DNA from: Patescibacteria group bacterium
GTDB taxonomy: Bacteria > Patescibacteriota > Saccharimonadia > Saccharimonadales > JAZKJC01
Direction of reading: 5' to 3'
NCBI GenBank assembly: GCA_040384565.1
Contig: JAZKJC010000003.1
Coordinates: 87,195-151,194, forward strand
DNA: 64,000 nucleotides
This document shows, in pieces, positions 3,758-42,131 of the stretch. The stretch's first letter is position 1. Each line of letters begins with the position of its first letter. The notes below the pieces were generated by a model. The model made no database searches. It saw only the letters and a program-made list of their open reading frames with translations, and was not told where the DNA came from. A program made the translations under genes and the position numbers.

Positions 3758-3840
3758 CTGTTGGCTCGCAAAGGTCAAACCGATTCAAGTCACACTAGTA
3801 GAACTAGTGGCTTCCCGATGGGGTAGTGAATTCTTATCCA

Positions 3841-13600: not shown

Positions 13601-16600
13601 TGATAATAAGCAAAAAGTATCGTTGCTGGTAATAATAGGGACATCGACTATACGGTTGGCAGCCTGATTAAGACTGCGAATACTCAAAGTTTGGCCACTG
13701 CCATCATGCAGAGCCAATGAACCTTGTAACGCCGCTGTACCAACAGTGGCAGTGGCACCCTGAACTGCTAAGGTACCGGCAATGGTAGTATTGCCACCGG
13801 ACGTCACGTCAAAGTTGGTGAAGTCTATGACTGCCGTGGTGCCTTGCAACGTCTGGGCAGCCAAATCAATACCCCCACCAGCGACAATCTGGTTATTGAA
13901 CGTCTTAACACCAGCAAACGCCTGAGCACCAGTGGTAACAGCACCGGCTTCGGTGGCAGAAGCATTGCCAATAGCTAATGTAATATCATCTGGGTTTGTT
14001 ACAACGTTCAAAGTCCAAGTGACAGACGCCGACGTACCAGTGGCAGCCGTACTGAGGAAATTAGCCCCCGTTGCTCCAGTTCCGTTAACAGACACATCGT
14101 CACCCGTGCCGGTACCGTCAGTGGCACAGATCCAGGTGTTGCCAGTGGTTTCGTACTTCAGGACTTCGCCGTTAGCACAATCAATTAGAGATAGGCCATT
14201 GCCGTCAACTTCCAGACCTTTGCTGGCTTGGAGTGTCAGGGCGATGTCATTAGCATTCGCTACAATACCGCCATTGGCCGAAGCCACGTTTAGGGTTAGT
14301 ACTCCAACTGTACCACCGCCTGTTAAGCCGGAGCCAGCCGTGACACCAGTGGTGGCATGGCTAGCGACATTGCCGCTGGTCACAACCGTGCCGCCCTCAT
14401 TCAAGGTAAATGTCTGATCAGCCGCCAGATCGGCAACATCCAGAATGGCGTAGAAAGCACCGGACGATTCACGAATCTTCAGCTCTGAGCTGGAGTTATC
14501 CAGAGTAATATCAAAGGCACCACTTTGCAGCCAGTCAGCCGTCAGGTTACTAAGCGCAATCGTCGGCGTACCGCCTTCAGTGTTAGAGGTTCCAGATATA
14601 CCGTTCCCGGCGGTAATTGTGGCTACATAATTGCCATTTGTATCTGTACCAAGATCAATCGTGCCGACACTGACCACCCCGGAGCCGTCGACTTCCAGAA
14701 AGCCGTTTGTGAGGCTTGAGAAAGTGGCAGTACCGCCGACAGTTATGCCGCCGGTGCCTTGGAGGAGTCCTGAGCCGGCATTAACGCCAACTGCCGTGAC
14801 TGCACCGGCACTACTGACATCAAAGTTGGTAAAGTCAATGACAGCCGTGGTACCTTGCAGAGTTTGAGAACCTAAGCTAATACCCCCACCAGCGACGATT
14901 TGGTTGTTGAAAGTCTTAACGCCGGCAAATGTCTGGGCGCCAGTGGTGACAGCTCCTGCCTCAGTGGCCGAGGCGTTACCAATAGCTAGGCTAATGTCAT
15001 CTGGCGTAGAGGCTCCGACGAGCGTCCAGGTAGTGGCCGTAGAAGTACCGGTCGCGGCCACGTTGAGGAAGTTAGCATCATCTGCAGCTGTGCTGTTGAC
15101 GCTAATGTTATCGCCTGAACCGCCACCGTTATCGGCAGCGCAGGCCCATTGGTTGGAGCCGTTATATTTAAGGACCTCGCCACTACTACAATCAATCAAT
15201 GACAAGCCGCTGCCGTCGACTTCCAGGCCTTTGTTGGCTTGGATTGTTAACGTTATGTCATCAGCATTTACAACGATTCCACCATTACCGGAAGCAACCG
15301 TCAGCGTCGCGTTACCGGAAGCTGCGCCGCCAGTTAGACCAGCTCCGGCAGTAACATCAGTGATCACACCGCTGACTTCGCCTTCTGTAATGCCGCCGTC
15401 TAAGACCTCTAGTTCGACGCTTGTGAGTGTTGCACCTGAGGTAATGATACTGTTGGCACCAATGCTTAAATTACTCGTTAACGTCAGGCCGGCAAACTGC
15501 GGCGTTGCGGCTGTGCTGATGCCTTGTATTGTATTTATAACACCACTTGCTGCTGAGAAGTTCGTGGCGTTGAAGGCGGCAATACCTTTAGTTGTGCCGT
15601 CTGCCGCCGCATCATCAATGGTAATAACGTTACTGGAACCCGTGGCGTTATTGATAGTCACAGCCGGGCCAGTTTGACCGTCAATACTTGTCAGACCGCC
15701 ACCGCCACCACCGCCTAAACAGGCATCCCAGAACAGCGTGCCTGAGCCATCTTGGGCCTTGAGACATTGGTTAGCGCTACCAACGGCACCGGGCAATAGT
15801 AGTGAATAGCTGGTACTCACATCAGGCAGATTCAAAGTAATAGTCTCTCCGTCACCGTCGTGCAATACAATCGATGCGCCTTGGGTAATCGTACCGAGTG
15901 TGGCACTGCCGCCTTGAACGATGATGTCAACACTTGTGGTTACATTAGTGCCATCATCAGAAATAGTCGAATCGACGATATTATTACCGCCTACCCCGAA
16001 TTTACTCAGTTGGTTTTGGGTACCGCTACCGGTGATACCGCCGCCGGCGCCGGCGCAGTTGCCACTATCCAAACAGATTGTGCCGGTACCGGTCGTGTAA
16101 TTAGGCAAGGTGTAGGTTCGGTCAGCTGTCAGGTCACCGACGTCTAGCGTGCCGTAGAAGGCCCCAGATGATTCCCTAATAGATAATTCACTGGCGGCGT
16201 TATCCAGCACGATGTCAAAGGCGCCAGTCTGGGTCCAGTTAGCCGTCAGATTACTGAGGCCCAGCGCCGCCGTCCAGCCCTCACCGGGCGTCCCCGTAAC
16301 TGCAATACCGTTGCCGCCGGTGGTGCTGGCCTGATAGTTCCCAGCCGTTTCAGTCCCCAGATCAACTTCCGTACCAAAATTGTTGGTCACGGTGATGCTG
16401 CCGCTGGCGTTACTGATAGTGATCCCCGCCCCTTGGGTAAGAGTCGCTAGGGTATAGCCCGTTCCATTACCGATAAGCAACTGGCCATTGGCGGCAGCAG
16501 AACCATTCACACCAGTCCCGCCATTACCAACCGGCAGGATACCGGTGACTTCGGCACTGGCCAGATCGACGCTTGTACCAAGTGTGGTTTGCAATGAGCC

Positions 16601-18760
16601 GCTGCTGATCGTCAAACCGGTGCCAGTCAGATCGGTGAAGGCATCGCCATTGAACGTAAAGGTGTCGCCGGTCTGAACAGCCAAGTTGCCGTTGGCCGTC
16701 AGCGTGCCGGAGAATGTTCCAGTGCCCGTGACGTCAAAATTACCGCCAAGCAGGCTCAGGTTCCGCGTGTTGTCCAGCTCAAGCGTTGAGCCGTTTTGGA
16801 GTAACCAGCTATCGGCGATAGTCTGGGCACCGCTGAAGTAAGCAATCCGGTTTGTGTTGCCCGTGCCTGTGATGCCGCTGGCCGCATCGCCGTTGTCGTC
16901 TTGACAACCAATGTTACCGGATGCATCTGTCGTCAATACACCACCATTAGCAAAGGTGGTACAGTTTAGTCCTGTTAAGCGTACTTGATCAGCACTGGTC
17001 AGGACAATGTCATTGCCGGCGCCATTGCTGGTAATGGTGGTGGTTGAACCTTGCAATAGAGCCGTTTGGCCAGTTGCCCCAACCGTTAAGGCACCGCCTG
17101 GAGTAATGCTTAACGCCCCGCTGCTTTGCAATAGCGGCGTTGTCACACTTGAGGAAAACGTAGGGTTGTTGATCGTATTAATGCTGTAGGTGCTATTGGC
17201 ACCGCCATCGGAACCGATTAGATTGCCGGTAGGCGTAATAGCTCGTTCACCTGTCAGTGTACCGTCATTGCCTACGGTCACATAGGCTGCACTGTTGGGC
17301 GCCCCGGTGGTATCGCTATCTGTATCACAAGCCCACTGGTTAGCACCATTATATTTGAGGATTTGGTTGAGTCCACAATCGATTAGCGACAGGCCGTTGC
17401 CGTCAACTTCCAAGCCTTTATTGGCTTGTATCGCAAGCGTAATGTCATCAGCGTTTACCGTAATTCCATTTCCGGCACCGATGTTGAGGGTTGTGGCTGC
17501 GCCAAGCGCGACACTACCGCCATTCGTTAGACCGCTACCGGCTGTAACTGTCAGTGAAGAATTGACCAGCTCGAGGTTAGAGATTGTGGGACCCAGTAGT
17601 GACACATTGGCACTAAGCCGTAGATCATTAAGTGTTCCGCTAGCCATATTGCTGGCATTAAGCGCCGTTAAGGCCGATCCATTGCCAGAAAAGGCCACCG
17701 CACTGATATTGCCACTAGCGCTCAAGTCTCCAGCGACTGATACAACACCAAGCGCCTGTGACAATAGGGAATTCTCAATATTTGTAGCTGAGGTAAAGAC
17801 TGGAATTGTGCCAGCAGTTCCGCCACCAGTAGTCACCCCAGCCCCAGCGCCACCGTCATCATTGGCACAAATAACCTGGCCAGAACCATTAGTGGTTAGC
17901 GTACCGCCATTGGTCAGGACACTACAGTTCAGTGGCAATGTTAGCATTCCGCTCATTGACAGATTACCGTTGAGCGTCAAACCAGCAAAGGTTGGTGAGC
18001 TGAGCTGCGCCAAATCCTGGGGCCCAGCCAAGGTAATTGTGCCGTTAGCGGTTGATACTGTAATTTGATTGGCTGTCCCCTGGACAGTGACCACGCCGAC
18101 TTGATTGTTGACCAGACTGGAGGCTGGAATTGCCGGCACAACCACCTGGCCAAGCCGGTTTTGCAGCAAAGCAAGAGTAGCGTTGGTTTGATTGAGAGCA
18201 GCCTGAGTCGCTAGGTTACAGTTATTACTATCCAAACAGAGCGTGCCCGAAGCGTTAGGTAAAATAAACGTTTGGTCGGCTGTGGAATTTTGCGTTTTTA
18301 GAGTGGTCGCGTAGTTGCCATTTGAGAATCTCAACTCGCCGCGGGTCGCCAGGTCACCGTTTACCAGCAATGATTCACGGGCAGTGTTTAGCTCTTTGGG
18401 GATTGTCGATAAATTGGCGTCTTTGAGAGAGATGTCTTGGGGTGTAATTGTCGCTTGCTGGGCTAGTTGATTATCCGAGCCGCGCCGGGCAAAGAACAAT
18501 ATGCTTGCCCCCGTAATTAGTATTACAAATATGGTGATCCCGATTGAAACAATCATGGCCTTTCGGCGGGAGAAAGAAAATCCTCGAAAGTTTGACTCGG
18601 AAGAATAGGTTTGAGCCTGAGAAACAACATTTTGTTCATGCATTTCTAAGGACTCTGCTGGTGTTGGTATTTGAGCACTGTCGTAGAAACCCCCAGAAAT
18701 GGGAGTACTTACCGAGTCGTTTTGACCTGTATTGGCGGTATTAAACCGCTGTTCATCCAT
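4601..18760 (-). CDS. Giant (4,719 aa) membrane-anchored surface protein built from tail-fibre-like modules
   Basis: From the ORF track. A ~66-aa N-terminal tail precedes one TM (AMIVSIGITIFVILITGASILFF, ~18488-18556). Fibre motifs include GILPVGNGGTG and 3x GLEVDGxGLSLIDCxxGEVLKYNGSNQWAC. A repeated ~430-aa super-module runs TTAFQIQ..DTTNSR..LVLDTKNTAGDPTGVNGAxYYNSNTNKFRCFENSAW..TLQxAYNxDADGSDA..TPFVIDQNGxVGIG..GGxGGxG blocks..GNVGIGTxxPxAxLHV. The C-terminus has an ADLAEWIKY..LIGVVS..GRVPVKV block (~5245-5640) resembling a Peptidase_G2-type chaperone domain, and the last ~90 aa look like an H-type lectin. Confidence 0.9.
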   Translation of the reverse strand: MDEQRFNTANTGQNDSVSTPISGGFYDSAQIPTPAESLEMHEQNVVSQAQTYSSESNFRGFSFSRRKAMIVSIGITIFVILITGASILFFARRGSDNQLAQQATITPQDISLKDANLSTIPKELNTARESLLVNGDLATRGELRFSNGNYATTLKTQNSTADQTFILPNASGTLCLDSNNCNLATQAALNQTNATLALLQNRLGQVVVPAIPASSLVNNQVGVVTVQGTANQITVSTANGTITLAGPQDLAQLSSPTFAGLTLNGNLSMSGMLTLPLNCSVLTNGGTLTTNGSGQVICANDDGGAGAGVTTGGGTAGTIPVFTSATNIENSLLSQALGVVSVAGDLSASGNISAVAFSGNGSALTALNASNMASGTLNDLRLSANVSLLGPTISNLELVNSSLTVTAGSGLTNGGSVALGAATTLNIGAGNGITVNADDITLAIQANKGLEVDGNGLSLIDCGLNQILKYNGANQWACDTDSDTTGAPNSAAYVTVGNDGTLTGERAITPTGNLIGSDGGANSTYSINTINNPTFSSSVTTPLLQSSGALSITPGGALTVGATGQTALLQGSTTTITSNGAGNDIVLTSADQVRLTGLNCTTFANGGVLTTDASGNIGCQDDNGDAASGITGTGNTNRIAYFSGAQTIADSWLLQNGSTLELDNTRNLSLLGGNFDVTGTGTFSGTLTANGNLAVQTGDTFTFNGDAFTDLTGTGLTISSGSLQTTLGTSVDLASAEVTGILPVGNGGTGVNGSAAANGQLLIGNGTGYTLATLTQGAGITISNASGSITVTNNFGTEVDLGTETAGNYQASTTGGNGIAVTGTPGEGWTAALGLSNLTANWTQTGAFDIVLDNAASELSIRESSGAFYGTLDVGDLTADRTYTLPNYTTGTGTICLDSGNCAGAGGGITGSGTQNQLSKFGVGGNNIVDSTISDDGTNVTTSVDIIVQGGSATLGTITQGASIVLHDGDGETITLNLPDVSTSYSLLLPGAVGSANQCLKAQDGSGTLFWDACLGGGGGGGLTSIDGQTGPAVTINNATGSSNVITIDDAAADGTTKGIAAFNATNFSAASGVINTIQGISTAATPQFAGLTLTSNLSIGANSIITSGATLTSVELEVLDGGITEGEVSGVITDVTAGAGLTGGAASGNATLTVASGNGGIVVNADDITLTIQANKGLEVDGSGLSLIDCSSGEVLKYNGSNQWACAADNGGGSGDNISVNSTAADDANFLNVAATGTSTATTWTLVGASTPDDISLAIGNASATEAGAVTTGAQTFAGVKTFNNQIVAGGGISLGSQTLQGTTAVIDFTNFDVSSAGAVTAVGVNAGSGLLQGTGGITVGGTATFSSLTNGFLEVDGSGVVSVGTIDLGTDTNGNYVATITAGNGISGTSNTEGGTPTIALSNLTADWLQSGAFDITLDNSSSELKIRESSGAFYAILDVADLAADQTFTLNEGGTVVTSGNVASHATTGVTAGSGLTGGGTVGVLTLNVASANGGIVANANDIALTLQASKGLEVDGNGLSLIDCANGEVLKYETTGNTWICATDGTGTGDDVSVNGTGATGANFLSTAATGTSASVTWTLNVVTNPDDITLAIGNASATEAGAVTTGAQAFAGVKTFNNQIVAGGGIDLAAQTLQGTTAVIDFTNFDVTSGGNTTIAGTLAVQGATATVGTAALQGSLALHDGSGQTLSIRSLNQAANRIVDVPIITSNDTFCLLSLGNCFGTGTGGTLQAAYNAGNTITTTDARNLLVTLANTTTDSSFFVNIASGSNGKFSVQNAGVDAFNISVSGGFTGVSLWDSTNLAVNDGLTVLTGHNSGVGETVLTVNARTSSNLLQLVSDNDAGGIGSASFTVNRNGHTTLQNQLANSTTAFQVLATAGEKALVVDTTNSRVGIAMTALENPSQALTFGNGNRVITILPPSVGASGQTGGNLGIHAAKGFGPTSPAAGGYLDLHGGNSGISGGNGGNAYLYGGTDVVGTLHGNTILAYDIGAAAAIGKVGIGTNTPNATLHVLQQVATSGTPLALRVRAGAHTGLTASTESIDVDFDLSRSVSFATGALATQRAFVIQAPTYNFTGSSTITNAATAAITGPPGTGSNATITNSHALLIQNFSVGAAGITTNAYGLTVNAPTNATGNSYVAQFLGGNVGIGDTSPAYLLTVGNNDKFGVTSAGDLKFEGTTNDANNFTITAADPTASRTYTIPNSSATTDTFCLLTLNNCASSTTLQSAYNADADGSDAIIALTTADDSIIIRNPASSGSDSTYPLTVDQLNTGAFGGMFINSLGTGYALRVDDSSGDTTPFVIDQNGQVGIGTTTLAADLTFGGGVDRSIVVGGNSGGNLTIVAGANTGGTPGRLILRGGNGGAIGSGNNVYVAGGSAAGGNGNVILAHDGTTALGNVGIGDASPAALLTVGSGDLFKVDSSGFVQGNVTTTGTTGNTESTPRTNVTTVTIDAAGSFANNDIIWINNAGQDYYTRIVSGGGTTTLTVSPAVSYDADITITKVNAQSIGATSSAYSTDTNRYFQGYFLGGVVTGAGSTTLSDGNLSSTGNLVLQGAGGNVGIGTTNPTATLHVAGANGNNAGTGGAAPVALRVVGGTGGNGSSGPGGVGADLVLSGGTGGNGSSGNFGGNGGNISITAGNGGDSSNLVARPNGGNITLQAGAQGTGGNSDGVNGNINLQTTNGVVNITGSRVGINISNPNAAFEVLSTSANSAYITADTGAAAYTTTSLMQGLTIRNTNTNSTGFVGISFASSAAANSGNATIGAVRTGTDSNALVFATRCNGCSTTERARIDQSGSLGIGTTAPASMLSVGASNQFQVDSTGNILASGNLISTGNHTLSQGANRTISVAQASSGNGYNLTVQAGSANAGGTGGDLNLNGGSGGSGVSPGGNVRIQGGASGNGTNGGNVYIDGGTTSGTPGNILFSTVTAGRVGIGLSGPSALLHVSGTGGGSSLLRVTDTTATARDVFDIADGGATTFRNQTDSTTAFQIQNAAGTNLLVADTTNSRLQVGSTTADATGALLVLDTKNTAGDPTGVNGATYYNSNTNKFRCFENSAWADCITSASASTLQGAYNADADGSDATIALTTADDSLIFSNPAASGSDSDFVLKVTQLATGASKSGLLLTSAGGSSGYALRVNDDGTDTDSTPFIIDNAGNVGIGLASPTSILHILGPNQATAGAAAVQTLQVTGGTGGNGTTGAGGAGSLLAMLSGTGGVGGVSGGGLGQTGGAGGALTLTGGTGGAGGNGTDGVAGGGVGALGGAINITSGAGGQGGSAGAGTGLDGADGGAGGNINIQTGVGGGGGGDGCGGSCNSGQTGAYGNITMQASGGNVGIGTSTPGALLHVSSTGSTDLFKVTDTSTTAQDVLKVADGGATTFRNQTNSTTAFVVQSTTAGNELFQIDTTNSRIYIGDTTADATAALLVLDTKNTAGDPTGVNGASYYNSNTNKFRCFENSAWGDCISAASTLQSAYNTDADGSDAIVALTTADDSIIIRNPASSGSDSTYPLTVDQLNTGAFGGMFINSLGTGYALRVDDSSGDTTPFVIDQNGRVGIGVTSTPGSMLQVDGPSATTAGAAATPVLQVFGGNGASVAGSAGGNGSLISLQSGNGGSAGQAVGSMNGGNGGVLTLATGSGGQGGLSFNSISAVGGVGGALSVTTGAGGGGGTINTFGGDNGGAGGAFSLTTGVGGAGSQGYNGTNAGSGANGGNITITSGTGGIGGSACPGCEDPDGPGVNGGNGGSGGTITIQGGTGGTGGPAGTGTAGTNGSYGNVILQSSGGFVGIGDATPDAKFDIDATFSPATTGTTTNTGSGLTVSNTVNKTAGTDTTYGQQLTVTRTGATGGTINTYGLDIQATGDTGGTSTLTGLNVNVSGADTNYAALFNGGYVGIGTTTPSALLSVGTGAASNFKVNADGDITSSFTTLNGSTTANGAGTNSTTLILTSATNFDVGNYVQVDPTGANTCSGAVTVCYAKITAIATNTLTISPALTWDNGAAVVEMHIPELGGVDLTQSLTNRYGRGYFIDGIVTGNGSTYFTDKSIQQTVGGSTFNFLDNGNTSTINFGTSATTTNFSGSVTTNTLNVLGPNQPADSGAAAVQTLNVVGGIGGSGADSGNGGTGSSISLASGAGGAGGSGIQFTGNNGGNGAAAGDITISGAIGGAGGNGGEAYYEEAGCGGYCGPGGNGGNGSNGGRLVLQGGAGGNAGSGASGSINGTDGTAGLFGNITLQASGGNVGIGMSSPSRKLDVTGTWGGNVSTTATSDSATTSTVSTAALAYYVQSTDTTGDCNTADKTFNITGLPSSEGTFAYIVSKATDNNCTSNSVDVTVQINGSTIGTVTAANTVNGSVTENYTVAYINGTWRIVGLNSGTAQAANGSDTADLAEWIKYTGTKPQPGDVLTVGDSTVSVKQSTLAYDSKLIGVVSTTPHTVMGTDDGQSVVLALTGRVPVKVSLEGGAIQVGDKLTSSSTPGVAMKASGAGRIIGIALDAYDGTQTGNKVMVQLGIGYNSEPTTDIQGNSATFNTLTILGDATINNLTVTNTITTKDLTVTGTATIQNLTVSGVSTLAELTVTGNAKVQGTLTVTKLVIKDTLIIESHIISRGTAPQAVLGAASGTGTGTPIDPATMPTIALDGTDTTGTISVRTATASNRGVLATIKFNKAFERTPKIVISANDELSLLLQVYVRKTADGFELVAINPAADNTTYNFDYVILAAAPTP
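8112..8307 (-). repeat. Intragenic 196-nt repeat, copy A (100% identical to 11841-12036)
   Basis: Base-by-base comparison of the two stretches. Both encode ..TADDSIIIRNPASSGSDSTYPLTVDQLNTGAFGGMFINSLGTGYALRVDDSSGDTTPFVIDQ. Confidence 0.85.
11841..12036 (-). repeat. Intragenic 196-nt repeat, copy B
   Basis: Identical to 8112-8307. The flanks diverge immediately on both sides. Confidence 0.85.
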
Positions 18761-21797: not shown

Positions 21798-24700
21798 TTA
21801 AGATGCTTGCTCTAGTTTTATGTCTAGCATGTAGCTGTCAATTTTTAATGTTGATTGATAAGCTTTGGCGCCTGGATTATCAGAGATGACTAGGGTTTCT
21901 TGGTGGATGGTGTCTCTGTGTTCACTGATGGCCTGTTGCAGGTCATTGTCATCTGTTTGCAGGGCTAGAGCGATACGATCGTCAACCTGCAGGCCAGCTT
22001 GCTTGCGAGCATTTTGGACTTGCCGGACAACTTCCCGCATTAGGCCCTCGCGCTTTAGTTCGGGCGTCAGATTGAAATCAAGCTCAATCTGGTACAATTG
22101 CTGGAAATTGTCTTCTGCCAGGTTTTCAGCAAATGTTTTGTCAGCTTTTGGCTGCTTGTCATCGACTCTTGCTTCTTTTAGGTTGAGTTCCTCTTTTACG
22201 ATATCTATTAACGCTTGGGGGAAGTCTTTGTAGATGCCTTTTATCGTGGCAGATGCCAATGGCTGACGGACCTTTATACCCTTTTCTGCCCGTAAGCTGA
22301 GACCAATGTTTATAACATGACGGATAGCATCCATTTGTTGCAGAACTTCCGTGTCAACTTTTCCGGCTTCTGGCCAGTCCAGTAAGTGCACGGATTCACC
22401 GCCAGTAAGCTTCTGGTACAGCTCTTCGGCCAGAAAAGGCGTAAACGGTGCCATAGCCAGGCTTAAGCGAACCAAAACGTAGTGTAGGGTCTTGTAGGCG
22501 TCGTTTTTGTCTGTGTCATTATCTGATTTCCAGAATCTTTTACGGCTGCGGCGAACATACCAGTTGCTGGCGTCATCTATGAACGGTAAAATATCTGCCA
22601 AAGCATTTGGGATATCATAAGTAGCCATGTGTTTATCGATATGCTGGGTTAACTGATGAACCCGGGATACAATCCATAGATCTAGGGGGTTAGTTAGTTT
22701 ATCACTTGGGTCATTTAATTCACCGTCCCACTCCCAGCCATCAACATCAGCATATAGCGTAAAGAAATCATACATATTCCATACCATCGCTAGCTTACGG
22801 CTGACATCACCCACGTCTTTATCTGTTAGCGAGAAATCTTCTCCGTTCAGTAAAGGCGAGCCAAGTAGCAAAAAGCGCAGCGCGTCAGCCGAGTAAGTAT
22901 CCATGAGTTCATTTGGGTCGGTGTAGTTACCAAAACTCTTGCTCATTTTGCGACCATCACTGCCCGCTAGGGTTCCCGTAACATTGACCTGCCTAAATGA
23001 GTTTTTGCCAAAGAGCCCCACACTCACAGCATGCATATAATAAAACCAGGCTCTCACCTGCCCAACGTACTCCACGATAAAATCACCGGGAAAATTGTGT
23101 TCAAATTTATCGGTATTTTCAAACGGATAGTGATACTGTGCAAACGGCATGGAGCCGCTCTCAAACCAACAATCCAACACTTTATCAATCCGAGAATATT
23201 CAACACCATCTATACTAAATTTGACATCGTCAACCCATGGGCGGTGGTAATCATCCAGTTCCACCCCTGACAATTCTTTTAGCTCGGCGTAGCTGCCGAT
23301 AATTTTTACCAGCTCACGGCCGTTGCTATCCTTGCCTTTCCAAACCGGCATCGCAGTCGCCCAAAACCTGTCCCGGCTTAGGTTCCAGTCCGGCGCGCTT
23401 TGAACAGTTTTTTCAAACCGGCCATGTTTTATGTGCTCCGGAAACCAGCTTATATTTTCATTCATTTCCAGCATTTCTGATCGCTGCCCCTCAATATCCA
23501 TGAACCAGCTGGGGTGTGCCCGGTACATAAGCTTGGTCCCGCAACGGTGACAATGCGGATAACTGTGGGTTATATAATCAATCTTCCAGACTACGCCACG
23601 GGCATGTAGTTCTTTAGCGATTTCCTTATTCGCCTCCCAGACGTTCCGGCCTTTCCACTTGCCATCAGTATAAATACCGTTTTCGTCCGTATTCATCACC
23701 CACGGGAAGCTTTCTTGCTTACTAAGCGTGTAATCTTCTTCACCATAAGCCGGCGATTCATGGGCTATGCCCGTACCGTCTTCTGCGTGTACAAAATCTG
23801 CATGCCAAACCTTAAAGGCTTTGTTGTCCAAGTTTTTGTAAGTATCAAATAAAGGCTCGTAAGAGTTGCCTACTAATTCCTGACCCTTAAATTTGCGCAA
23901 GACTTTGTGTGGTAATGGTTGATGTTTCTCATCTGTTAGTACTTTCTCTACCAAGGCTTCGGCCAATATAAGCTTCCCCCCCATTTCCAAACTTTCCAAG
24001 GAGGCTCCTTGGAAACTAGGGTTTTGTGATGTAATAGGTTTTGTAATTTCAATCTCTACGTAATCCAGATCTTTATTAACTGCTATGGCACTGTTTGAGG
24101 GCAGCGTCCAAGGTGTTGTTGTCCAAGCCAGAAGAAAGGTAGGATTTTCATCTACCGTTTCCAATTTTCCACCCTCCCCCCTTTGCTCATTGCTCATTGC
24201 TCTCTGCTCATTGCCTAATAATAGTTTGAACTTCACGTACACTGACGGGTCGGTTACATCCTGATAACTGTTGTCCATGGCCACCTCGGCCTTACTGATG
24301 GGCGTAGCATCGCGTGTGCAGTACATAAGTACTTTCTCTCCCTCGTAGATTTTGCCCTTCTTGTGCAGCTCCTTAAAGGCCCACCAGACGCTTTCCATGT
24401 AATCCTTGTCCATGGTTTTATAGGCACCCTTAAAATCAACCCAACGCCCAATCCGGTCAATAGTGTCTTCCCAGAGGCTCCCAGTCTGAACCATGTTGTC
24501 CCGGCAGGTTATGATGTATTCTTCCAGGCTAATTTTTGTACCGATGTCACGCTTGTCTTTGATGCCAAGCTTTTTCTCTGTAAACACCTCCGCTGGCAAG
24601 CCATGACAATCCCAGCCCCAACGTCGCTCCACTCGCTTGCCTTTCATAGTCCAGTAACGAGGCACAGCGTCTTTGATGATTGTCACCAGTAACGTGCCCG

Positions 24701-24866
24701 TATGTGGCTCCCCAGTGATAAACGGAGGCCCATCATAAAACACATACGAGTTGTCTTTTGTCCGCATCTCAACAGACTTCTCAAAAGTCTTATGCTCTTT
24801 CCAATACTGTACAAGGTCTTTCTCGTACTCAATTGGTTTCCGCCTAGTCCCCTGCTTGAATTTCAC
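21798..24866 (-). CDS. ileS: Isoleucyl-tRNA synthetase
   Basis: 1,022 aa with a class I aaRS HIGH-like motif (PHTGTLL), KMSKS, WTTTPWTLP and a C-terminal tRNA-binding region. GTG start preceded by AAGGAG. Confidence 0.95.
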   Translation of the reverse strand: MKFKQGTRRKPIEYEKDLVQYWKEHKTFEKSVEMRTKDNSYVFYDGPPFITGEPHTGTLLVTIIKDAVPRYWTMKGKRVERRWGWDCHGLPAEVFTEKKLGIKDKRDIGTKISLEEYIITCRDNMVQTGSLWEDTIDRIGRWVDFKGAYKTMDKDYMESVWWAFKELHKKGKIYEGEKVLMYCTRDATPISKAEVAMDNSYQDVTDPSVYVKFKLLLGNEQRAMSNEQRGEGGKLETVDENPTFLLAWTTTPWTLPSNSAIAVNKDLDYVEIEITKPITSQNPSFQGASLESLEMGGKLILAEALVEKVLTDEKHQPLPHKVLRKFKGQELVGNSYEPLFDTYKNLDNKAFKVWHADFVHAEDGTGIAHESPAYGEEDYTLSKQESFPWVMNTDENGIYTDGKWKGRNVWEANKEIAKELHARGVVWKIDYITHSYPHCHRCGTKLMYRAHPSWFMDIEGQRSEMLEMNENISWFPEHIKHGRFEKTVQSAPDWNLSRDRFWATAMPVWKGKDSNGRELVKIIGSYAELKELSGVELDDYHRPWVDDVKFSIDGVEYSRIDKVLDCWFESGSMPFAQYHYPFENTDKFEHNFPGDFIVEYVGQVRAWFYYMHAVSVGLFGKNSFRQVNVTGTLAGSDGRKMSKSFGNYTDPNELMDTYSADALRFLLLGSPLLNGEDFSLTDKDVGDVSRKLAMVWNMYDFFTLYADVDGWEWDGELNDPSDKLTNPLDLWIVSRVHQLTQHIDKHMATYDIPNALADILPFIDDASNWYVRRSRKRFWKSDNDTDKNDAYKTLHYVLVRLSLAMAPFTPFLAEELYQKLTGGESVHLLDWPEAGKVDTEVLQQMDAIRHVINIGLSLRAEKGIKVRQPLASATIKGIYKDFPQALIDIVKEELNLKEARVDDKQPKADKTFAENLAEDNFQQLYQIELDFNLTPELKREGLMREVVRQVQNARKQAGLQVDDRIALALQTDDNDLQQAISEHRDTIHQETLVISDNPGAKAYQSTLKIDSYMLDIKLEQAS

Positions 24867-26605: not shown

Positions 26606-26660
26606 TAAAACTAGCTTATAGCTGATAGCTGATAGCGTCAAGCCACTGTGAGCGCAAAAC

Positions 26661-28199: not shown

Positions 28200-30992
28200 T
28201 CAACTGCAGCCGGTAGTTGATCCACATGAGGTACATACATAGCAGCTGCCAGCTTTTTGGGTCTGGTTGCCGCAGTTATAGCACATTGGGGCAGAATCAT
28301 CCTGGAAAGCTTTGGCTTTGGGTTTCTCGTCAAAGGCAGTTGTTACCGGTTGCGTAGCTTCTACGATTGGCTTAGACGACGTTTCCGGGATTTGCTCGGC
28401 TACTTCTGTTTCTATCATTGATTGCGGTTCATCTAGCAAGCTGGTTTGTTCGTCCGGCATGTCATCTATTGAAGCCAAGCCAAGTTCTAGGCGGTCATCA
28501 AAAGATAGATAGCTTAAGGCTAAGCGCCTGAAAATATAGTCCGTTATAGAGCTGGCGGTGCGGATTTCCGCGTCATCTGTTACGCCGGCTGGGGCAAAGC
28601 TGGTGCTCATGAACGCGCTGACGTATGTTTTGAGCGGAACACCGTACTGCAAACCGTGGCTCACACTGATGGCAAAGGTATCCATAATTCCCCGTAAGGT
28701 TGAACCATGCTTGGAAAAGTTAATGAATAGCTCACCTGGCGAACCGTCCTCGTATTCACCCAAAGTGACATAACCCTTTGAGTCAGCTACCTTAAAGGCA
28801 AAAGTCTTTGAGTTGCGGACTCGGGGTAATGGACGGCGGACTGCGCCCCTGACAATAATTTTATCGTTCATAGCATCGGCTACACCTGGTAAATTATTGT
28901 TGCTATCGCCGCCTTTTTTGGTCATGGACAACGGCTGTGCGACCTTACAATTATCGCGGTAAATTGCTACGGCCTTAAGACCTAATTTCCAGGCTTCCAG
29001 GTGGAGTTGTTCTATCTCTTCCACGGTTGCGGTTTCCGGCATATTGACAGTTTTGCTGATTGCGCCAGAAATAAAAGGTTGTACTGCTGACATCATTTTT
29101 ACGTGGCCCATATAGTGGATTTCGTTATCTCCCATAGAGCAAGAAAAGACGGAGCGGTGTTCTGGCTTGAGGTGAGGTGTATCTGTTATTGTTTTCTCTA
29201 CATCAATATAAGTCACAATATCCTGGATTTGTTGCGCAGTATATCCGAGTACTTTTAGTGCTCGCGGTACAGTTTGGTTCACAATATTCATAGTGCCACC
29301 ACCAACCAGTTTCTTGAATTTTACCAGTCCGAGGTCAGGCTCAATACCAGTTGTGTCGCAATCCATCATTAGGCCGATGGTGCCAGTTGGAGCCAAGACG
29401 CTGGCCTGAGAATTACGCACTCCGTATAGTTCGCCCAGTTCTACGGCGTCGTCCCAGGCGGTGGCTGCCGCGCTTAGGAGTTCTTCCGCAACCAGGCTGG
29501 CATCTATCTTTGATACTTCTGCCCGGTGCATCTTGAGTACATTTAACATGCCGTCACGGTCCTTATGGAAGCCGGCGAAAGGTCCGACCCGGTTAGCCAT
29601 CCGCGCACTGGTGGCATAGGCATGTCCCGTGAGAATTGCTGTGATAGCTGCGGCCTGAGCCCGACCTTCGTCACTATCATATGGCAAACCCTGAGCCATC
29701 AACATAGCACCAAGGTTAGCGTAGCCAATACCCAGCTCACGGTAAGCGCGAGCATTCTTGGTGATGTTTTCTGTGGGGTATTCACTGTAACCGACTAGGA
29801 TTTCCTGAGCCGTAAATATCAGTTCTACGGTGTGCTTGAAAGCCTCGACGTCAAAGCTGCCGTCATCGTTCAGGTACTTAAGTAGGTTGATTGAAGCCAG
29901 GTTACAGGCTGAGTTATCCAAGTGCATGTATTCGCTGCAGGGATTACTACCATTGATACGCCCGGCATTAGGGCAGGTATGCCAACGGTTAATTGTAGTG
30001 TCAAATTGCATGCCAGGATCGGCGCATTCCCAGGCCGCTTCAGAAAATTGGCGCATAAGCTCACGCGCTTTGAGTGTCTTAACGACTCTGCCATCTTTGA
30101 CTGCTCGTAGCTCCCAGGTTTCATCATCTTCTACGGCTTTCATGAACTCATCTGTCACCCGTACGGAGTTATTGGCGTTTTGGTATTGGACAGAGTGGAT
30201 ATCTTTGCCGTCCAGGCTCATGTCCCAACCGGCTTTTTCCAGGTCCCTAGCCTTGCGCTCTTCAAGTGCCTTGCACCAAATAAATTCTTCTACGTCTGGG
30301 TGGTCTACATCCAGTATTACCATCTTGGCGGCTCGGCGAGTCTTGCCGCCGCTCTTGATAGCTCCGGCTGAAGCGTCTGCTCCGCGCATAAAGCTTAATG
30401 GTCCGGATGCCGTGCCGGCGCTTTTGCCGAGCTTTTCAACTGATGAGCGAATGGTGCTAAGGTTAATGCCTGAGCCTGAGCCGCCCTTAAATATCATCCC
30501 CTCTTCTTTGTACCAGTTAAGGATTGAGGGCATAGTATCTTCTACGGCCAGAATAAAACAGGCGCTGGCCTGCTGTGCACGCTCCGGCGCTCCAATATTG
30601 AACCAGACTGGTGAGTTAAAGGCGGCGCGTTGGGTAGCGAGAATATACTTCAACTCTTCACGAAAATCTTCGGCTTCTGCCTCTGTCTCAAAATAACCTT
30701 CCTGTAAGCCTTGGCGCGTAACCGTATCAACTACACGATCAATCAGTTTTTGCAGAGAATCTTCACGTTCGGGCGTGCCTGGGGTACCCGTGAAATATTT
30801 TTGGGCTACTATATTAATAGCATTCAGCGACCAGCCTTCCGGGAAATCAATACCAAGCTGCTCAAAAACTGGTTTATTAGTCATAGGATTCATAATCACC
30901 GAGTCACGCTTAACCCACTTCAGTTGATCGTAAGCTTTAGATTTTGCGGGCGTAAAGAATCTCCTGCGCCCCAGGATAGTTGTTTGTCCCAT
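28200..30992 (-). CDS. nrdJ: Class II (adenosylcobalamin-dependent) ribonucleotide reductase
   Basis: 930 aa with NPCSEYMHLDNSACNLASINL in the active-site region and a C-terminal Cys-rich tail CYNCG..CYVCTSCG. AAGGAG SD sequence. Confidence 0.9.
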   Translation of the reverse strand: MGQTTILGRRRFFTPAKSKAYDQLKWVKRDSVIMNPMTNKPVFEQLGIDFPEGWSLNAINIVAQKYFTGTPGTPEREDSLQKLIDRVVDTVTRQGLQEGYFETEAEAEDFREELKYILATQRAAFNSPVWFNIGAPERAQQASACFILAVEDTMPSILNWYKEEGMIFKGGSGSGINLSTIRSSVEKLGKSAGTASGPLSFMRGADASAGAIKSGGKTRRAAKMVILDVDHPDVEEFIWCKALEERKARDLEKAGWDMSLDGKDIHSVQYQNANNSVRVTDEFMKAVEDDETWELRAVKDGRVVKTLKARELMRQFSEAAWECADPGMQFDTTINRWHTCPNAGRINGSNPCSEYMHLDNSACNLASINLLKYLNDDGSFDVEAFKHTVELIFTAQEILVGYSEYPTENITKNARAYRELGIGYANLGAMLMAQGLPYDSDEGRAQAAAITAILTGHAYATSARMANRVGPFAGFHKDRDGMLNVLKMHRAEVSKIDASLVAEELLSAAATAWDDAVELGELYGVRNSQASVLAPTGTIGLMMDCDTTGIEPDLGLVKFKKLVGGGTMNIVNQTVPRALKVLGYTAQQIQDIVTYIDVEKTITDTPHLKPEHRSVFSCSMGDNEIHYMGHVKMMSAVQPFISGAISKTVNMPETATVEEIEQLHLEAWKLGLKAVAIYRDNCKVAQPLSMTKKGGDSNNNLPGVADAMNDKIIVRGAVRRPLPRVRNSKTFAFKVADSKGYVTLGEYEDGSPGELFINFSKHGSTLRGIMDTFAISVSHGLQYGVPLKTYVSAFMSTSFAPAGVTDDAEIRTASSITDYIFRRLALSYLSFDDRLELGLASIDDMPDEQTSLLDEPQSMIETEVAEQIPETSSKPIVEATQPVTTAFDEKPKAKAFQDDSAPMCYNCGNQTQKAGSCYVCTSCGSTTGCS

Positions 30993-31150
30993 AGTTCCCT
31001 CACTCCTTTTTTAGCTAGTAGCTTATAGCTAATAGCTGTTAGCTTAATTTTTGGTTGTTTGTTTAGAGTTGTTGCTCTGTACGCTCTCTTGTACATTGCC
31101 AGCTCCTGCCCAGGCTGTTTAATTGCAGCCAAGGAACAGCTGGTAATGGC

Positions 31151-33321: not shown

Positions 33322-33390
33322 CTAGTAATACATCCTCGCGTTTAGTATAGGGTGAGTATAACCGATATTGATCAAGCGTTCAACCTTGAC

Positions 33391-33511
33391 CAAATTTTCA
33401 ATTTACAATTTACAATTTTCAATCAATGTACTAATTTTCAATGTCTCAAAAGTTTGAATCATTAGGTTATTGTAACTTGAATGAAAATTGAAAATTGGAG
33501 GTTTGAAAATT
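33391..33511. repeat. AT-rich palindromic intergenic element X1 (AATTTTCA arms / TGAAAATT arms)
   Basis: Four AATTTTCA-type units face three TGAAAATT-type units. The right 27 nt (33485-33511) is identical to 34927-34953. It begins 5 nt after the ftsA stop. Confidence 0.7.
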
Positions 33512-33515
33512 ACTT

Positions 33516-34745
33516 TTACTTCTTAAATCGTTTGATGAGGCCTTCTATTAGGCCAAGCGCTTTTTTATTGGGGCTGCCGTGTGATGTACGATCAGCTTCT
33601 GGTGTCAGCAGCATATCTAATTGCATAAGTCCGATGGCTGTCGCGTATGATGGATCATCAACGACATCTACTAGCCCTTGTAAGGGTTGGAGAGTACCGA
33701 GCCGAGCCGGTAACTGTAATTTCTCTTTGGCAAAGTCAGCCAGGCCGGGCAGCTTAGACGACCCACCTACAATAACTACACCACCGGGCAATTTGCGGGC
33801 TCTGCCTATTTTGCGGAGTTCTTTATCTACAAAATCAAATAGTTCATCCACCCGGGCTTCTGTGATCATATGGATTTCACTTTTGGGAAATGAATGTTGC
33901 TTACCGTCTACTTCAACCTTTATGGTGGCGTAATCGGGAGCTTCAAGCGTAGCATGATTAATTTTTACGGCTTCAGCTACATTCAGATCCGTCTTAAGCC
34001 CAATAGCTAAATCATTGGTGATATTAATACCTCCGATTGGCAGGACCGCGACATGCTGGATCTCACCATCCTCTACTACGACAAGGCTGGTGGTGCCGGC
34101 GCCAATATCAAGCAGCACGGTCCCAGACTCTTTTTGTTGCCGGTTTAATACCGCCTCAGCCGCAGCTAAGCTAGATACTGTGATGTGATTGATGCTAACA
34201 TGGGCGCGTTCCAGGGCACTGGTAAGGCTTTTTAGTGTAGGCGACGACGCTGTCACTATGTGCGTATCAACTTCTAGCCGTACCCCATTCATACCGACTG
34301 GATCTTTGATGTTATCCTGGCCATCAACCCGGTAATTTTTGGCAAATACCTGGATAATCTCACGGTTAGGTGGCAACTGCATGATTGTGGCTGCTTCTTC
34401 GGCCCGGAAGCGATCATCCACACTGATTTCACGGTTAGCGGCACTAATTGCTACAACGCCTTTGGAGTTAATGCCTGAAACATGGGTTCCATTAATATTA
34501 ACTGTAGCAGCACGAATATGAATACCGGATATACGCTCCGCTTCTGTAACAGCGTGAGTGATCGCTTCTGTCACATCGTCCAGATGCACCACAACACCCT
34601 TTCGCATCCCAATATTTACTGTAATACCATGTCCAATTATAGAAGTCTCGTTGGGACGCTCAGGATCAAACATACCAACCACGCACCTGACGGCTGACGT
34701 GCCTATATCAAGGCCAAAAAAATTTGTCGGCGAAGCATCGCGCAT
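33516..34745 (-). CDS. ftsA: Cell division protein FtsA
   Basis: FFGLDIGTSAVRCVVG.., the actin/HSP70 fold motif LDIGAGTTSLVV and GGSSKLPGL. Start trimmed to the ATG at 34745. Confidence 0.9.
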   Translation of the reverse strand: MRDASPTNFFGLDIGTSAVRCVVGMFDPERPNETSIIGHGITVNIGMRKGVVVHLDDVTEAITHAVTEAERISGIHIRAATVNINGTHVSGINSKGVVAISAANREISVDDRFRAEEAATIMQLPPNREIIQVFAKNYRVDGQDNIKDPVGMNGVRLEVDTHIVTASSPTLKSLTSALERAHVSINHITVSSLAAAEAVLNRQQKESGTVLLDIGAGTTSLVVVEDGEIQHVAVLPIGGINITNDLAIGLKTDLNVAEAVKINHATLEAPDYATIKVEVDGKQHSFPKSEIHMITEARVDELFDFVDKELRKIGRARKLPGGVVIVGGSSKLPGLADFAKEKLQLPARLGTLQPLQGLVDVVDDPSYATAIGLMQLDMLLTPEADRTSHGSPNKKALGLIEGLIKRFKK

Positions 34746-34954: not shown

Positions 34955-34964
34955 TTGAAAATTT

Positions 34965-36253: not shown

Positions 36254-36299
36254 GCGAGATAACCTCGCCTGATTTTATGAGCAATGAGCAAGACAGAGC

Positions 36300-36752
36300 T
36301 CATTGGAGTTTATCCTTAACTAGGCGGGCAATTACCGCTCCATCGGCTGATCCCTTAGAGAGTTCTTTAACCTTACCAATAACCTGCCCCATAGCTGACA
36401 TGTCAGTCGCGCCTGTTTGGGCGATTACTTCTGCTATGAGCTGCCCGATCTCTTCTTCAGATAACTGAGCTGGTAGATATTTCTCTATAACTTTTTTCTC
36501 TGTTAGTTCAGCATCGGCCCGCTCCTGGCTACCACCTTGAATGTACATATCAGCGCTTTCCTGACGTTTCTTGGATTCTTTGCCCAGGATATCAACCACT
36601 TCTGGGTCAGGCAGGCCTTCTTCCCGTGCGTTTTTAGCTACTTCCACATACAGTATGGCGCTCTTAAGTCCTCGTAGCGTAGTCACCAGCGTTTTTTCTC
36701 CAGCCAGCATAGCAGTCTTTAGATCTTGGTCAATTTGTTGTTTAATGCTCAT
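36300..36752 (-). CDS. yqeY: GatB/YqeY-domain protein
   Basis: MSIKQQIDQDLKTAMLAGEK..LRGLKSAI..ESADMY..GG..ERA. Start trimmed to 36752. Confidence 0.8.
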   Translation of the reverse strand: MSIKQQIDQDLKTAMLAGEKTLVTTLRGLKSAILYVEVAKNAREEGLPDPEVVDILGKESKKRQESADMYIQGGSQERADAELTEKKVIEKYLPAQLSEEEIGQLIAEVIAQTGATDMSAMGQVIGKVKELSKGSADGAVIARLVKDKLQ

Positions 36753-40641: not shown

Positions 40642-41223
40642 ATGAAAACAGCTAAAGATCAAATTATTTACTTGCCCGATAAGCGTTTACGCCAAAGGTC
40701 CACCCGCGTCGGCCTTATAGATAAAAGTATTCAGGAAATTATAGACCAAATGATAGAGTCTACTATGGACTGGGAAGATAGCCGCCAGCACGAGCTTGGC
40801 GTTGCGCTAGCTGCCGTCCAGATAGGATTAACACTTAGGATTGTCATAATCCGTAATGATTTTAACAACAAAGATGATCGAAAATTTCGGGTGTTCATTA
40901 ACCCCGAGATTGTGAAATCAGAAGGTGAATTGATTGCTGATTTTGAGGGTTGTTTGAGCATAAAAAATGTATATGGGAAAGTGCCACGCTACCCCAAAGT
41001 TAAAGTTAAAGCTACTGATCGGGACGGTAAACCTATCCGCATTACCGCAAAGGGTTTCCTGGCACGAGTATTTCAGCATGAAATCGACCACACCAAAGGA
41101 ACGGTTTTTATAGATCACATCAAAGATAACACTGAAGCATTCTACAGATTACAGGATGATGGACACTTACTACCCCTGGATTATGAAAAAGAAATCGAGA
41201 ATAATACTGCTCTATGGAAATAG
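40642..41223 (+). CDS. def: Peptide deformylase
   Basis: GVALAAVQIG, EGCLS and HEIDH motifs. Confidence 0.95.
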   Translation: MKTAKDQIIYLPDKRLRQRSTRVGLIDKSIQEIIDQMIESTMDWEDSRQHELGVALAAVQIGLTLRIVIIRNDFNNKDDRKFRVFINPEIVKSEGELIADFEGCLSIKNVYGKVPRYPKVKVKATDRDGKPIRITAKGFLARVFQHEIDHTKGTVFIDHIKDNTEAFYRLQDDGHLLPLDYEKEIENNTALWK

Positions 41224-42131
41224 TTTTTTTTGGGACTGGACCTGTCGCTGCCGCTTCTTTAGAATCATTGGCTACTAACTTTAGCATTGAGCTGGTCATA
41301 ACTAAGCAAGCCCCTGCCCACCACAAAGGTTCTGTGCCAGTCCTAGAGGTTACGAACAGGCTTGGGCTGGCAGTTGAATTTGCTAACACCAAAGAAGAGC
41401 TTGATCAACTTATGGAAGACATGATTTTTGAAAGCAAAGTCGGTGTAATTGTTGATTACGGAGTAATTGTTTCTAAACGCGTCATCGATATTTTTGCGCT
41501 AGGTATCATAAACAGCCACTTTAGCTTACTGCCTGAGTGGCGTGGTGCCGATCCGATTACCTTTACCATTCTATCTGGACAAACAGAAACTGGCGTAAGT
41601 TTAATGAAAATTGTAGAAGCATTAGACGAGGGCCAACTAATAGCACAGGAAAAAATAGAGATTACTCCAAATGCTACGACACCAAGCCTCACTGGCATGC
41701 TAATCAAAAAAAACAACGAAATGTTTAAAAAATTCTTAGATGAGTACGCTTCAGGAAATATTGTTCCCTATGATCAGCCCGATATCCCTGCCACATACTC
41801 ACGTAAACTCACCAAAGACGATGGCATTCTGGATTGGACAAAGCCTGCAGTTCAATTGGAGCGGGAGATTAGAGGTTATATAGATTGGCCCAAAAGCCGG
41901 TGCGTGCTGGCCGGTAAAGACGTTGTCATCACGAAAGCTCGAAGTGAGCAACGAGCAGTGAGCAGTGAGCAAGGGGTAGAAATTGGAGACGCGAAAGTAA
42001 CTCCGGAAAAGCAGCTGGAAATTCAGACTGGGGATGGGGTGCTAATTATTGAAAAACTGAAGCCAGCTGGCAAGCCAGAAATGTCAGTAGAAGCCTTTTT
42101 GGCTGGGTATGGTCATCTACTCTCTAAATAG
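41214..42131 (+). CDS. fmt: Methionyl-tRNA formyltransferase
   Basis: IVFFGTGP.., the SLLPEWRGADPI motif and a C-terminal beta-barrel domain. It overlaps def by 10 nt. Confidence 0.9.
   Translation: MEIVFFGTGPVAAASLESLATNFSIELVITKQAPAHHKGSVPVLEVTNRLGLAVEFANTKEELDQLMEDMIFESKVGVIVDYGVIVSKRVIDIFALGIINSHFSLLPEWRGADPITFTILSGQTETGVSLMKIVEALDEGQLIAQEKIEITPNATTPSLTGMLIKKNNEMFKKFLDEYASGNIVPYDQPDIPATYSRKLTKDDGILDWTKPAVQLEREIRGYIDWPKSRCVLAGKDVVITKARSEQRAVSSEQGVEIGDAKVTPEKQLEIQTGDGVLIIEKLKPAGKPEMSVEAFLAGYGHLLSK

Follow-up and report, generated by a model that had tools for sequence, protein, structure and literature searches.

Heptanucleotide repeat arrays in the coding sequence of ileS and fmt of a Saccharimonadales bacterium

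Heptanucleotide repeats are the most abundant class of long simple sequence repeats (LSSRs) in most prokaryotic genomes, with polymerase slippage as their proposed source (Mrazek 2007, as relayed in PMC4679880 and PMC4692102). Repeat units whose length is not a multiple of three are, according to the same secondary accounts, rare in genes (Mrazek et al. 2007, via PMC4679880 and PMC4692102). This text concerns two arrays of a 7-nt unit that lie in frame inside ileS and fmt, which encode isoleucyl-tRNA synthetase (IleRS) and methionyl-tRNA formyltransferase (Fmt), in a metagenome-assembled genome (MAG) from the Saccharimonadales (Patescibacteria), a lineage of the candidate phyla radiation (CPR). 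The DNA analysed, here called the window, is a 64-kb stretch of contig JAZKJC010000003.1 with a GC content of 48.6%. The ileS and fmt segments are probably heptanucleotide LSSRs that came to be tolerated in surface loops once the stop codons in them had been removed. The repeat is of a known kind, found here in the CPR and in frame in essential genes, and neither a new mobile element nor a new function is shown.

Prokaryotic LSSRs are portrayed, in the same secondary accounts, as head-to-tail arrays of three to five 7-nt copies that are mostly intergenic, have genome-specific units and are presumed to arise by slippage (Mrazek, Guo & Shah 2007, via PMC4679880 and PMC4692102), and the ileS and fmt arrays are built in this way. 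Unlike the usual LSSR, they sit well inside genes that are essential for translation, in sense orientation and with their stop codons repaired, and arrays in the Fmt loop recur across many lineages. Tandem heptamers that are dispersed over a genome, preferentially within 50 nt of the ends or starts of open reading frames (ORFs), include the short tandemly repeated repetitive (STRR) sequences of cyanobacteria, the GGGNATC repeats of Xanthomonas and Nostoc (PMC4692102) and the TAACTGA repeats of Beggiatoaceae (PMC4679880). These families have other units and are described as under-represented in coding sequence, with no description of stop-repaired, in-frame arrays in housekeeping genes, and the intergenic arrays of the window differ from them in that they are often inverted pairs that fold. 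The TAACTGA study does argue that, with stop codons in the unit, repeats are limited in the orientations and frames that would let them into genes (PMC4679880).

Rickettsia palindromic elements (RPEs), to which a sequence-only reading of the window had compared the arrays, are likewise repeated DNA that adds a surface-tolerated peptide to unrelated housekeeping enzymes (PMC10969869). However, RPEs resemble transposable elements of the miniature inverted-repeat type (MITEs): they are about 150 bp long and palindromic, form defined families with a conserved peptide and occur in dozens of copies, whereas the ileS and fmt segments are 30–70 nt long, tandem and unstructured, and have in common only a heptamer core and a weak tail. 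The simple sequence repeats (SSRs) of contingency loci are also non-triplet tandem repeats in coding sequence (PMC3315296), but the ileS and fmt arrays are short, interrupted and in the middle of essential genes, without N-terminal bias or sign of switching. Repetitive extragenic palindromic (REP) sequences and REPINs, with their associated transposase RAYT (PMC3116915), are short dispersed repeats as well, and the window does contain an IS200/IS605 TnpA, a weakly RAYT-like Y1 protein and intergenic hairpin arrays. In contrast to that system, the coding arrays form no hairpin, and the Y1 genes, if the usual IS200 hairpin is set aside, have no flanking consensus of the REP type.

The arrays in ileS and fmt and their reading frame

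The nearest relatives of the proteins come from MAGs of Patescibacteria or Candidatus Saccharimonadales, and the gene orders adk-map-ftsA-ftsZ...ileS and priA-def-fmt are also found in other Saccharimonadales contigs. The ileS gene (21798..24866, minus strand) has an intact frame and encodes a type-2 IleRS of 1022 aa (TIGR00392, 794 bits); among solved structures, its best relative is 8c8u, a chain of an isoleucine--tRNA ligase (E = 6e-195). The fmt gene (41214..42131, plus strand; 305 aa) also has an intact frame. Its best NCBIfam match is TIGR00460 (fmt) at 183.9 bits (E = 3.9e-54), which is under the curated cut-off of 201.5 for that model. The protein has both Pfam domains, Formyl_trans_N and Formyl_trans_C, is named methionyl-tRNA formyltransferase by NCBI and has 4040 homologues at E <= 1e-20, and its AlphaFold2 (AF2) model has a mean pLDDT of 94.9.

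On the sense (minus) strand of ileS, GGC is followed by the heptamer core AATGAGC AGAGAGC AATGAGC AATGAGC (24185..24212), which encodes NEQRAMSNEQ, and then by AAAGGGGGGAGGG, where the units continue as AAAGGGG. On the sense (plus) strand of fmt, CGA is followed by AGTGAGC AACGAGC AGTGAGC AGTGAGC AAGGGG (41943..41976), which encodes SEQRAVSSEQG. A fragment of the same unit, ATGAGCAATGAGCAAG, lies between yqeY and adk at 36277-36292. Tandem Repeats Finder (TRF) reports period-7 arrays at all three places, 24183-24214 (4.6 copies), 41943-41971 (4.1 copies) and 36277-36291 (2.1 copies), and together with a re-reading of the DNA this bears out both the positions and the translations of the sequence-only reading, down to the two-unit intergenic fragment.

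Shuffles exclude chance as the source of the coding arrays. A degenerate 20-nt pattern, GAGCARTGAGCARTGAGCAA, with up to three mismatches, has five overlapping matches in the window, all within ileS and fmt; 0.05 matches are expected from shuffles, and five were reached in none of 100. The identity at a lag of 7 nt (lag-7) is 0.73–0.74 in the two arrays and was equalled in none of 5000 shuffles. Both are thus head-to-tail repeats of a 7-nt unit in at least three copies, beyond chance. The NCBI MAG and an independent Logan assembly of SRR26324625 yield identical IleRS and Fmt proteins, which makes it unlikely that the arrays were created by an assembler. Both arrays start well inside the gene, at codon 219 of 1022 in ileS and codon 244 of 305 in fmt. 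The peptides that they encode (NEQRAMSNEQR.., SEQRAVSSEQG) are hydrophilic, and the tryptic peptides predicted from them are AMSNEQR for IleRS and AVSSEQGVEIGDAK for Fmt.

The unit, A-R-TGAGC, includes a TGA, and a perfect array would give NEQ*AMS or SEQ*AVS in every sense frame. Since seven is not a multiple of three, the TGA slot moves through all three codon phases and comes into frame every third unit. In both genes, only units 2 and 5 bring the slot into frame, and these are the units that deviate: the unit 2 slot reads AGA in ileS and CGA in fmt, and the unit 5 slot AGG and GGG, respectively. Units 1, 3 and 4 are perfect in both arrays, and the periodicity decays from unit 5. The arrays are therefore readable only through mutation of the copies that would otherwise give an in-frame stop, and the pattern is that of purifying selection on a tandem DNA repeat, not that of a repeated peptide.

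The sequence-only reading had noted that the two arrays share a sense frame. They do, since both start in codon phase 0, but once the stop in unit 2 is repaired a single sense frame is open, so the common frame is forced and does not count as independent evidence. The antisense strand of the arrays is free of stops and would encode AHCSLLI, a hydrophobic repeat that would seem ill-suited to a surface loop.

The IleRS segment was compared with 59 orthologues of 67–74% identity. The stretch from KFKL to (Y/F)LLAWTTTPW is 28 residues long in the window and 5 in most orthologues, a net insertion of about 23 aa. The entire lineage-specific insert spans aa 216-238 (24153..24221, minus strand; LLGNEQRAMSNEQRGEGGKLETV) and consists of the heptamer core, the decayed units AAAGGGG GGAGGGT and then the tail GGAAAATTGGAAACG, in which lag-7 identity is 0.45 (p = 0.023). 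The heptamer insert is absent from all 59 orthologues, and at the same hairpin, unrelated inserts are found in P0023, P0036, P0045, P0050, P0052 and P0057. The earlier description of an in-frame, lineage-specific insertion in a variable region between VYVKFK and WTTTPW therefore holds, the hairpin being a general insertion hot spot and the heptamer insert private to the lineage of the window. That the hairpin might be a hot spot for heptamers in general was rejected, as a period of 7 nt is lacking from the insert of P0045.

In the alignment to 8c8u, the heptamer insert is a gap. An AlphaFold model that is only moderately good (mean pLDDT 69) gives residues 219-239 a pLDDT below 50 and places them between strands at 206-215 and 243-249. 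In L209, the closest orthologue, the empty site reads AAA CTG GAA GGG GAG CCT AGC TAC, and two parses of the insert may be derived from it. There may have been a single insertion of about 66–69 nt after KFKL, with VDEN as the native turn; or there may have been a 39-nt array plus a 30-nt insertion around a native RGE, in which case AGGGGGGAG would correspond to GAAGGGGAG of L209. A phmmer search with the 30-aa IleRS insert against 1.84 billion representatives gave a single, spurious match to a repetitive protein, and a synthetic NEQRAMS/SEQRAVS repeat searched against 5.8 billion proteins found 24 tiny ORFs of 37–95 aa and no real protein.

IleRS has a second insertion that is unique to this MAG, at aa 276-295 (23982-24041, minus strand; KPITSQNPSFQGASLESLEM), which is also a gap against 8c8u with a pLDDT below 50. 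It contains a perfect 23-nt palindrome at 23993-24015, TTTCCAAGGAG C CTCCTTGGAAA; the palindrome was considered as a dispersed REP and rejected, since it occurs once in the window.

Heptamer arrays in other genomes

For fmt, the outcome departs from the sequence-only reading. Residues 246-259 of Fmt form a coil between two strands of the C-terminal domain (AF2 model, mean pLDDT 94.9), and the block 251-260 is the part of the model with the lowest confidence (pLDDT 77). Among 120 orthologues, this loop is variable, with a commonest length of 16 aa. Some orthologues have longer, EQR-rich loops, and every such orthologue whose DNA was obtained has a 7-nt repeat there. The loop is encoded by a perfect (AGAGCAG) x 4.1 in L006/P0159, by AGAGTCA AGAGTTA AGAGACA AGAGACA AGAGTTG (approximately AGAGNNA x 6) in L004/P0139, by AGAGCAG GGAGCAG GGAGCGA in L210/P0141, by a perfect (ACAGAGT) x 4 in L212/P0143 and by an AACAGGA-like repeat in L213/P0148. 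The shuffle tests of lag-7 identity covered the loops of the window, L006, L004, L210 and L002 and were significant in the first four of these. The units of L006 and L212 contain no stop in any frame, and that these arrays are perfect is consistent with selection on stops.

Other loops are less regular. That of L002/P0131 reads GGAGCAA CGGACAA TAAGCGA TGAGAAA GGGG and encodes AEQRTISDEKG; it is a decayed version of the window's fmt array, likewise followed by GGGG, and its lag-7 identity is within the range of shuffles (p = 0.16). A sister Fmt, P0123, carries AEQGMKNEK, and fmt of L026 has two copies of a 14-nt unit. The best Fmt match among the representatives returned from GTDB has 55% identity. 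Five of the array-bearing loops are 23 aa long, exceeding the usual 16 by 7 aa, the length encoded by three units (21 nt). Taken together, orthologous array-bearing loops vary in both unit and length (21, 23 and 28 aa), as turnover of the repeats would predict, and belong to different lineages, not to strains of one species. Judged from these sequences, the Fmt loop is a heptamer microsatellite in at least seven lineages, at least six of them besides that of the window, with units that are different but related (GAG-rich).

Since other lineages have 7-nt arrays with other units in the same loop, the fmt array does not represent a recent insertion, private to this genome, of some shared element, and the earlier proposal that fmt had received the same element as ileS is not supported by the orthologues. 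The sequence-only reading had also taken orthologues with the same residues but no DNA periodicity as telling against it. P0131, at 55% identity, goes part of the way, as AEQRTISDEKG is encoded there by DNA whose periodicity has decayed. Directly 3' of the fmt array, at 41977..41994 (plus strand), TAGAAATTGGAGACGCGA encodes part of VEIGDA, the native xxGxx motif of Fmt orthologues; GAAATTGG encodes E-I-G in L020 and L026 too.

Heptamer arrays are not peculiar to these genes. A TRF census of 1.4 Mb, comprising the window and 83 Saccharimonadales loci, found 28 arrays of at least three copies with period 7, as compared with 16 of period 6, 11 of period 9, 5 of period 8 and 3 of period 10. Period 7 is the commonest, and after block shuffling 4 such arrays remained against the 28 real ones. 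Of 29 period-7 arrays listed, 19 are outside ORFs of at least 120 codons, though such ORFs cover 88% of the bases. The 1.4 Mb thus show a clade-wide excess of 7-nt arrays that are mainly intergenic and have diverse units, as expected of LSSRs. Arrays inside genes are few and always in variable surface loops. In-frame arrays are found also in the N-terminal part of priA of two further Saccharimonadales lineages, AACCCAT x 3.4 in L070 (7149-7172) and ACCCGAA x 4.9 in L078 (7721-7754). Searching the text of the literature for such repeats in Saccharibacteria or the CPR yielded nothing.

The GAGCA type itself is also widespread. A metagenome scan for (GAGCANN)4 returned at least 120 stretches with GC contents of 0.35–0.75, and among the matches listed are in-frame arrays in EPSP synthase, in MoeA and in the linker of a 2-oxoacid dehydrogenase E2. 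With 7-nt arrays dominant in the order and arrays of the GAGCA type widespread in metagenomes, the heptanucleotide SSR is the simpler category for the ileS and fmt segments than anything like an RPE.

Intergenic arrays and other repeats of the window

The intergenic copy between yqeY and adk (36277..36305, plus strand) reads ATGAGCA ATGAGCA AG and is followed by the inverted GAGCTCATTG. In the minus-strand transcript, this forms a hairpin just upstream of the ribosome-binding site (RBS) and start of adk, and a second hairpin in the fold of 36240-36330 (-27.5 kcal/mol, z = -3.7) takes in both the RBS and the start codon of adk. In L004, the orthologous spacer between yqeY and adk holds a perfect AATTTCC x 4.3 (5864-5893), another unit in the same spacer.

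The intergenic arrays in the ftsZ-ftsA-map-adk spacers come as inverted pairs, namely AATTTTC...GAAAATT and CAATGAGC...GCTCATTG. Minus-strand transcripts of the inverted pairs form long hairpins at 33375-33520 (z = -2.6), 34830-34970 (z = -4.7) and 36240-36330 (z = -3.7). The infB leader of another Saccharimonadales genome (L029, 13659-13720) has the same inverted design, (ATCGTTT)n followed by (AAACGAT)n. Arrays of a TAGCTNA heptamer are found at 26612-26636 and 31011-31046, the latter ending about 10 nt upstream of the AAGGAG RBS of a 930-aa gene (28200-30992, minus strand). Rfam, at the gathering threshold, had no match in the whole window, and promoters predicted by a promoter and terminator scan of 26–37 kb did not exceed shuffles; for the arrays, the scan was uninformative.

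Two adjacent Y1 (HUH) transposase genes are located at 3239-4455 (minus strand). One encodes an IS200/IS605 TnpA (128 bits) and is preceded by a perfect 14-bp hairpin (3725-3757); the other encodes a 204-aa Y1_Tnp protein with a weak RAYT-like match (REP_Tyr_transpos, 44 bits, where the cut-off is 80). Nothing was found to connect these transposases with the heptamer arrays, and the IS200 hairpin is the only one near the Y1 genes. Two giant minus-strand ORFs, 4601-18760 (4719 aa) and 49948-63882 (4644 aa), contain many internal repeats of 300–500 nt, and L214 has a comparable giant gene after ileS-rplU.

Origin and meaning of the coding arrays

The reading of the segments as LSSRs supposes that replication slippage or unequal exchange makes the arrays and homogenises them. 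In an essential gene, changes would survive only in multiples of 3 nt, so that three units (21 nt) would add 7 aa, which fits the observation that array-bearing Fmt loops are mostly 23 aa long against the commonest 16. Most likely, the ileS array arrived as a preformed block that was already free of stops, or through an event involving several units at once, and did not grow by single units. The insertions probably extend the loops with near-neutral effect and lack a DNA- or RNA-level function of their own.

Several points weigh against this reading. Pure slippage in situ, one unit at a time, would shift the frame of an essential gene, and the block or multi-unit event has to be assumed as an extra step. 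In P0122, the Fmt closest to that of the window (68% identity), the loop is of the plain 16-aa kind and encoded by ordinary DNA. The three copies in the window belong to one unit family (pairwise distance 0–1), as only 4.3% of between-genome pairs do, and this sharing, with the 3' tail common to ileS and fmt, hints at copying between loci that independent slippage leaves unexplained. Should the fmt array date back to the split from P0131, its three identical units would also require a recent re-homogenisation.

The likeliest alternative is that the ileS insert arose by ectopic, templated copying of the array in the fmt loop, or that the two go back to a third copy of a small dispersed element made up of heptamer array, G-run and GAAATTGGARACG. 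Copying would have proceeded by template switching or gene conversion with microhomology at AAGGGG, and because the stop of the donor was already repaired, one frame would be tolerated. The two arrays are alike in unit family, in the number of units (four), in the repair of unit 2 and the decay of unit 5, and in the G-run. The shared tail, AAGGGG..GAAATTGGA, extends the 3' similarity to 19 nt (GGGTGGAAAATTGGAAACG versus GGGTAG-AAATTGGAGACG; shuffle p = 0.006, with p about 0.001–0.006 overall) and the similarity stops at the end of the IleRS insert. In fmt, the tail is native coding sequence (E-I-G-D, present also in L020 and L026), which points to fmt as the donor, and the orthologous empty ileS site, GAAGGGGAG, offers the AAGGGG microhomology. 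Units are shared (distance 0–1) by 11.5–14% of pairs within a locus or genome compared with 4.3% between genomes. A pre-repaired coding donor would be attractive also because a perfect array with its TGA cannot enter an essential gene.

However, the cores of ileS and fmt are only about 83% identical, with the same A/G difference (AAT versus AGT) in three units, so copying would have to be followed by homogenisation. The ileS unit is identical to that of the intergenic copy and not to that of fmt. In a scan of 6394 windows with the ileS tail, the fmt site tied with four others at a score of 21, behind one better non-self match, and this best match is the intergenic GAAAATT array; together with the lag-7 identity of the tail, it suggests that the tail may be a second decayed heptamer array. 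The motif AAATTGGA is only mildly enriched (6 in the window, 2.8 expected), and three loci are all that is visible in the 64 kb. The junctions, read by eye, show no terminal repeats or target duplication, although no repeat search was run there. A non-coding (GAGCAAG)5 followed by GGGGTTGGAGAC is present in an unrelated, GC-rich metagenome contig (L104, 11771-11803).

The GGGGTTGGAGAC of L104 echoes the fmt tail GGGGTAGAAATTGGAGAC, and such coincidences do occur; L104 was considered as an fmt gene and rejected, being non-coding DNA of a GC-rich organism.

On balance, a copy relationship between ileS and fmt, as read from their sequences, is plausible but unproven, and somewhat doubtful. It concerns the origin of the arrays and is compatible with their nature as SSRs. 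The fuller scenario, in which arrays are copied between loci, the ileS insert being a templated copy of the stop-repaired fmt loop array with about 20 nt of native fmt sequence, and persist at orthologous sites (Fmt loop, yqeY-adk spacer) with genome-specific turnover of units, is less probable still. If true, it would imply homogenisation between loci or a genome-specific factor that makes or reads 7-nt arrays, and a previously undescribed way for CPR bacteria to lengthen the loops of essential proteins.

The comparison with RPEs stands as far as the outcome goes, an extra peptide in frame, in segments that are shorter and non-palindromic; for the properties of a mobile element, nothing was found in the folds or in the junctions read by eye. 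The ileS segment is in frame and absent from orthologues, as an RPE- or MITE-like insertion would be, whereas that of fmt is not private. RNA folds of the ileS and fmt coding arrays are no better than those of shuffles (z = 0.38 and -0.11), and no hairpin, palindrome, terminal inverted repeat or inverted arm was seen in either. When the junctions were compared by eye with the single empty site of L209, no target-site duplication was apparent, only the 4-nt AAAC at both edges, and no repeat search was run. The sole consensus beyond the heptamers is the weak 3' tail, and three loci in 64 kb share the unit. Mobilisation of a REP/REPIN by a RAYT finds no footing in the window either, given that the coding arrays are non-palindromic and that the Y1 protein, at 44 bits, stays below the REP_Tyr_transpos cut-off of 80.

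A role as functional cis element appears very improbable. On this view, GAGCA motifs that are phased along the mRNAs of ileS and fmt and the leader of adk might bind a trans-acting factor for RNA or single-stranded DNA, for example of the OB-fold or cold-shock type with about 7 nt per monomer, that couples the expression of translation genes. The unit family does occur at three loci, sense in ileS and fmt and antisense in the adk leader transcript, and orthologous sites (the Fmt loop, and the yqeY-adk spacer with AATTTCC x 4.3 in L004) keep arrays while the units change. For Beggiatoaceae, a role in regulating translation has been proposed for heptamer repeats that lie directly upstream of start codons, and each heptamer is bound by one CspB protein (PMC4679880). 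Yet the arrays are dispensable, as the closest Fmt and all 59 IleRS orthologues do without them; their units differ freely between lineages; the coding arrays give no structure signal; GAGCA arrays are scattered across unrelated phyla and unrelated genes; and no candidate factor was identified.

Phase variation, for which non-triplet SSRs in genes are the classic basis (PMC3315296), is hardly credible for arrays that are short, interrupted at units 2 and 5, mid-gene and in frame with full-length conserved proteins of genes that are single-copy in the window and normally essential, where an uninterrupted SSR near the 5' end of a dispensable gene would be expected, and chance or an assembly artefact is as remote, chance being excluded by the shuffles and the same proteins having come from two assemblies.

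The arrays are thus best regarded as LSSRs, and tandem heptamers are the main class of tandem repeat in the sampled Saccharimonadales loci. In ileS and fmt, they offer a clear view, at the level of sequence, of a non-triplet microsatellite in an essential gene, in which mutation is confined to the copies with an in-frame TGA, the array ends where the slot next falls in frame, and length varies in quanta of 21 nt (7 aa). Spurious small ORFs are called on heptamer arrays, a point of use for annotation. The arrays could also serve as markers for strain typing, and they may give insight into how the loops of conserved enzymes grow in reduced genomes.

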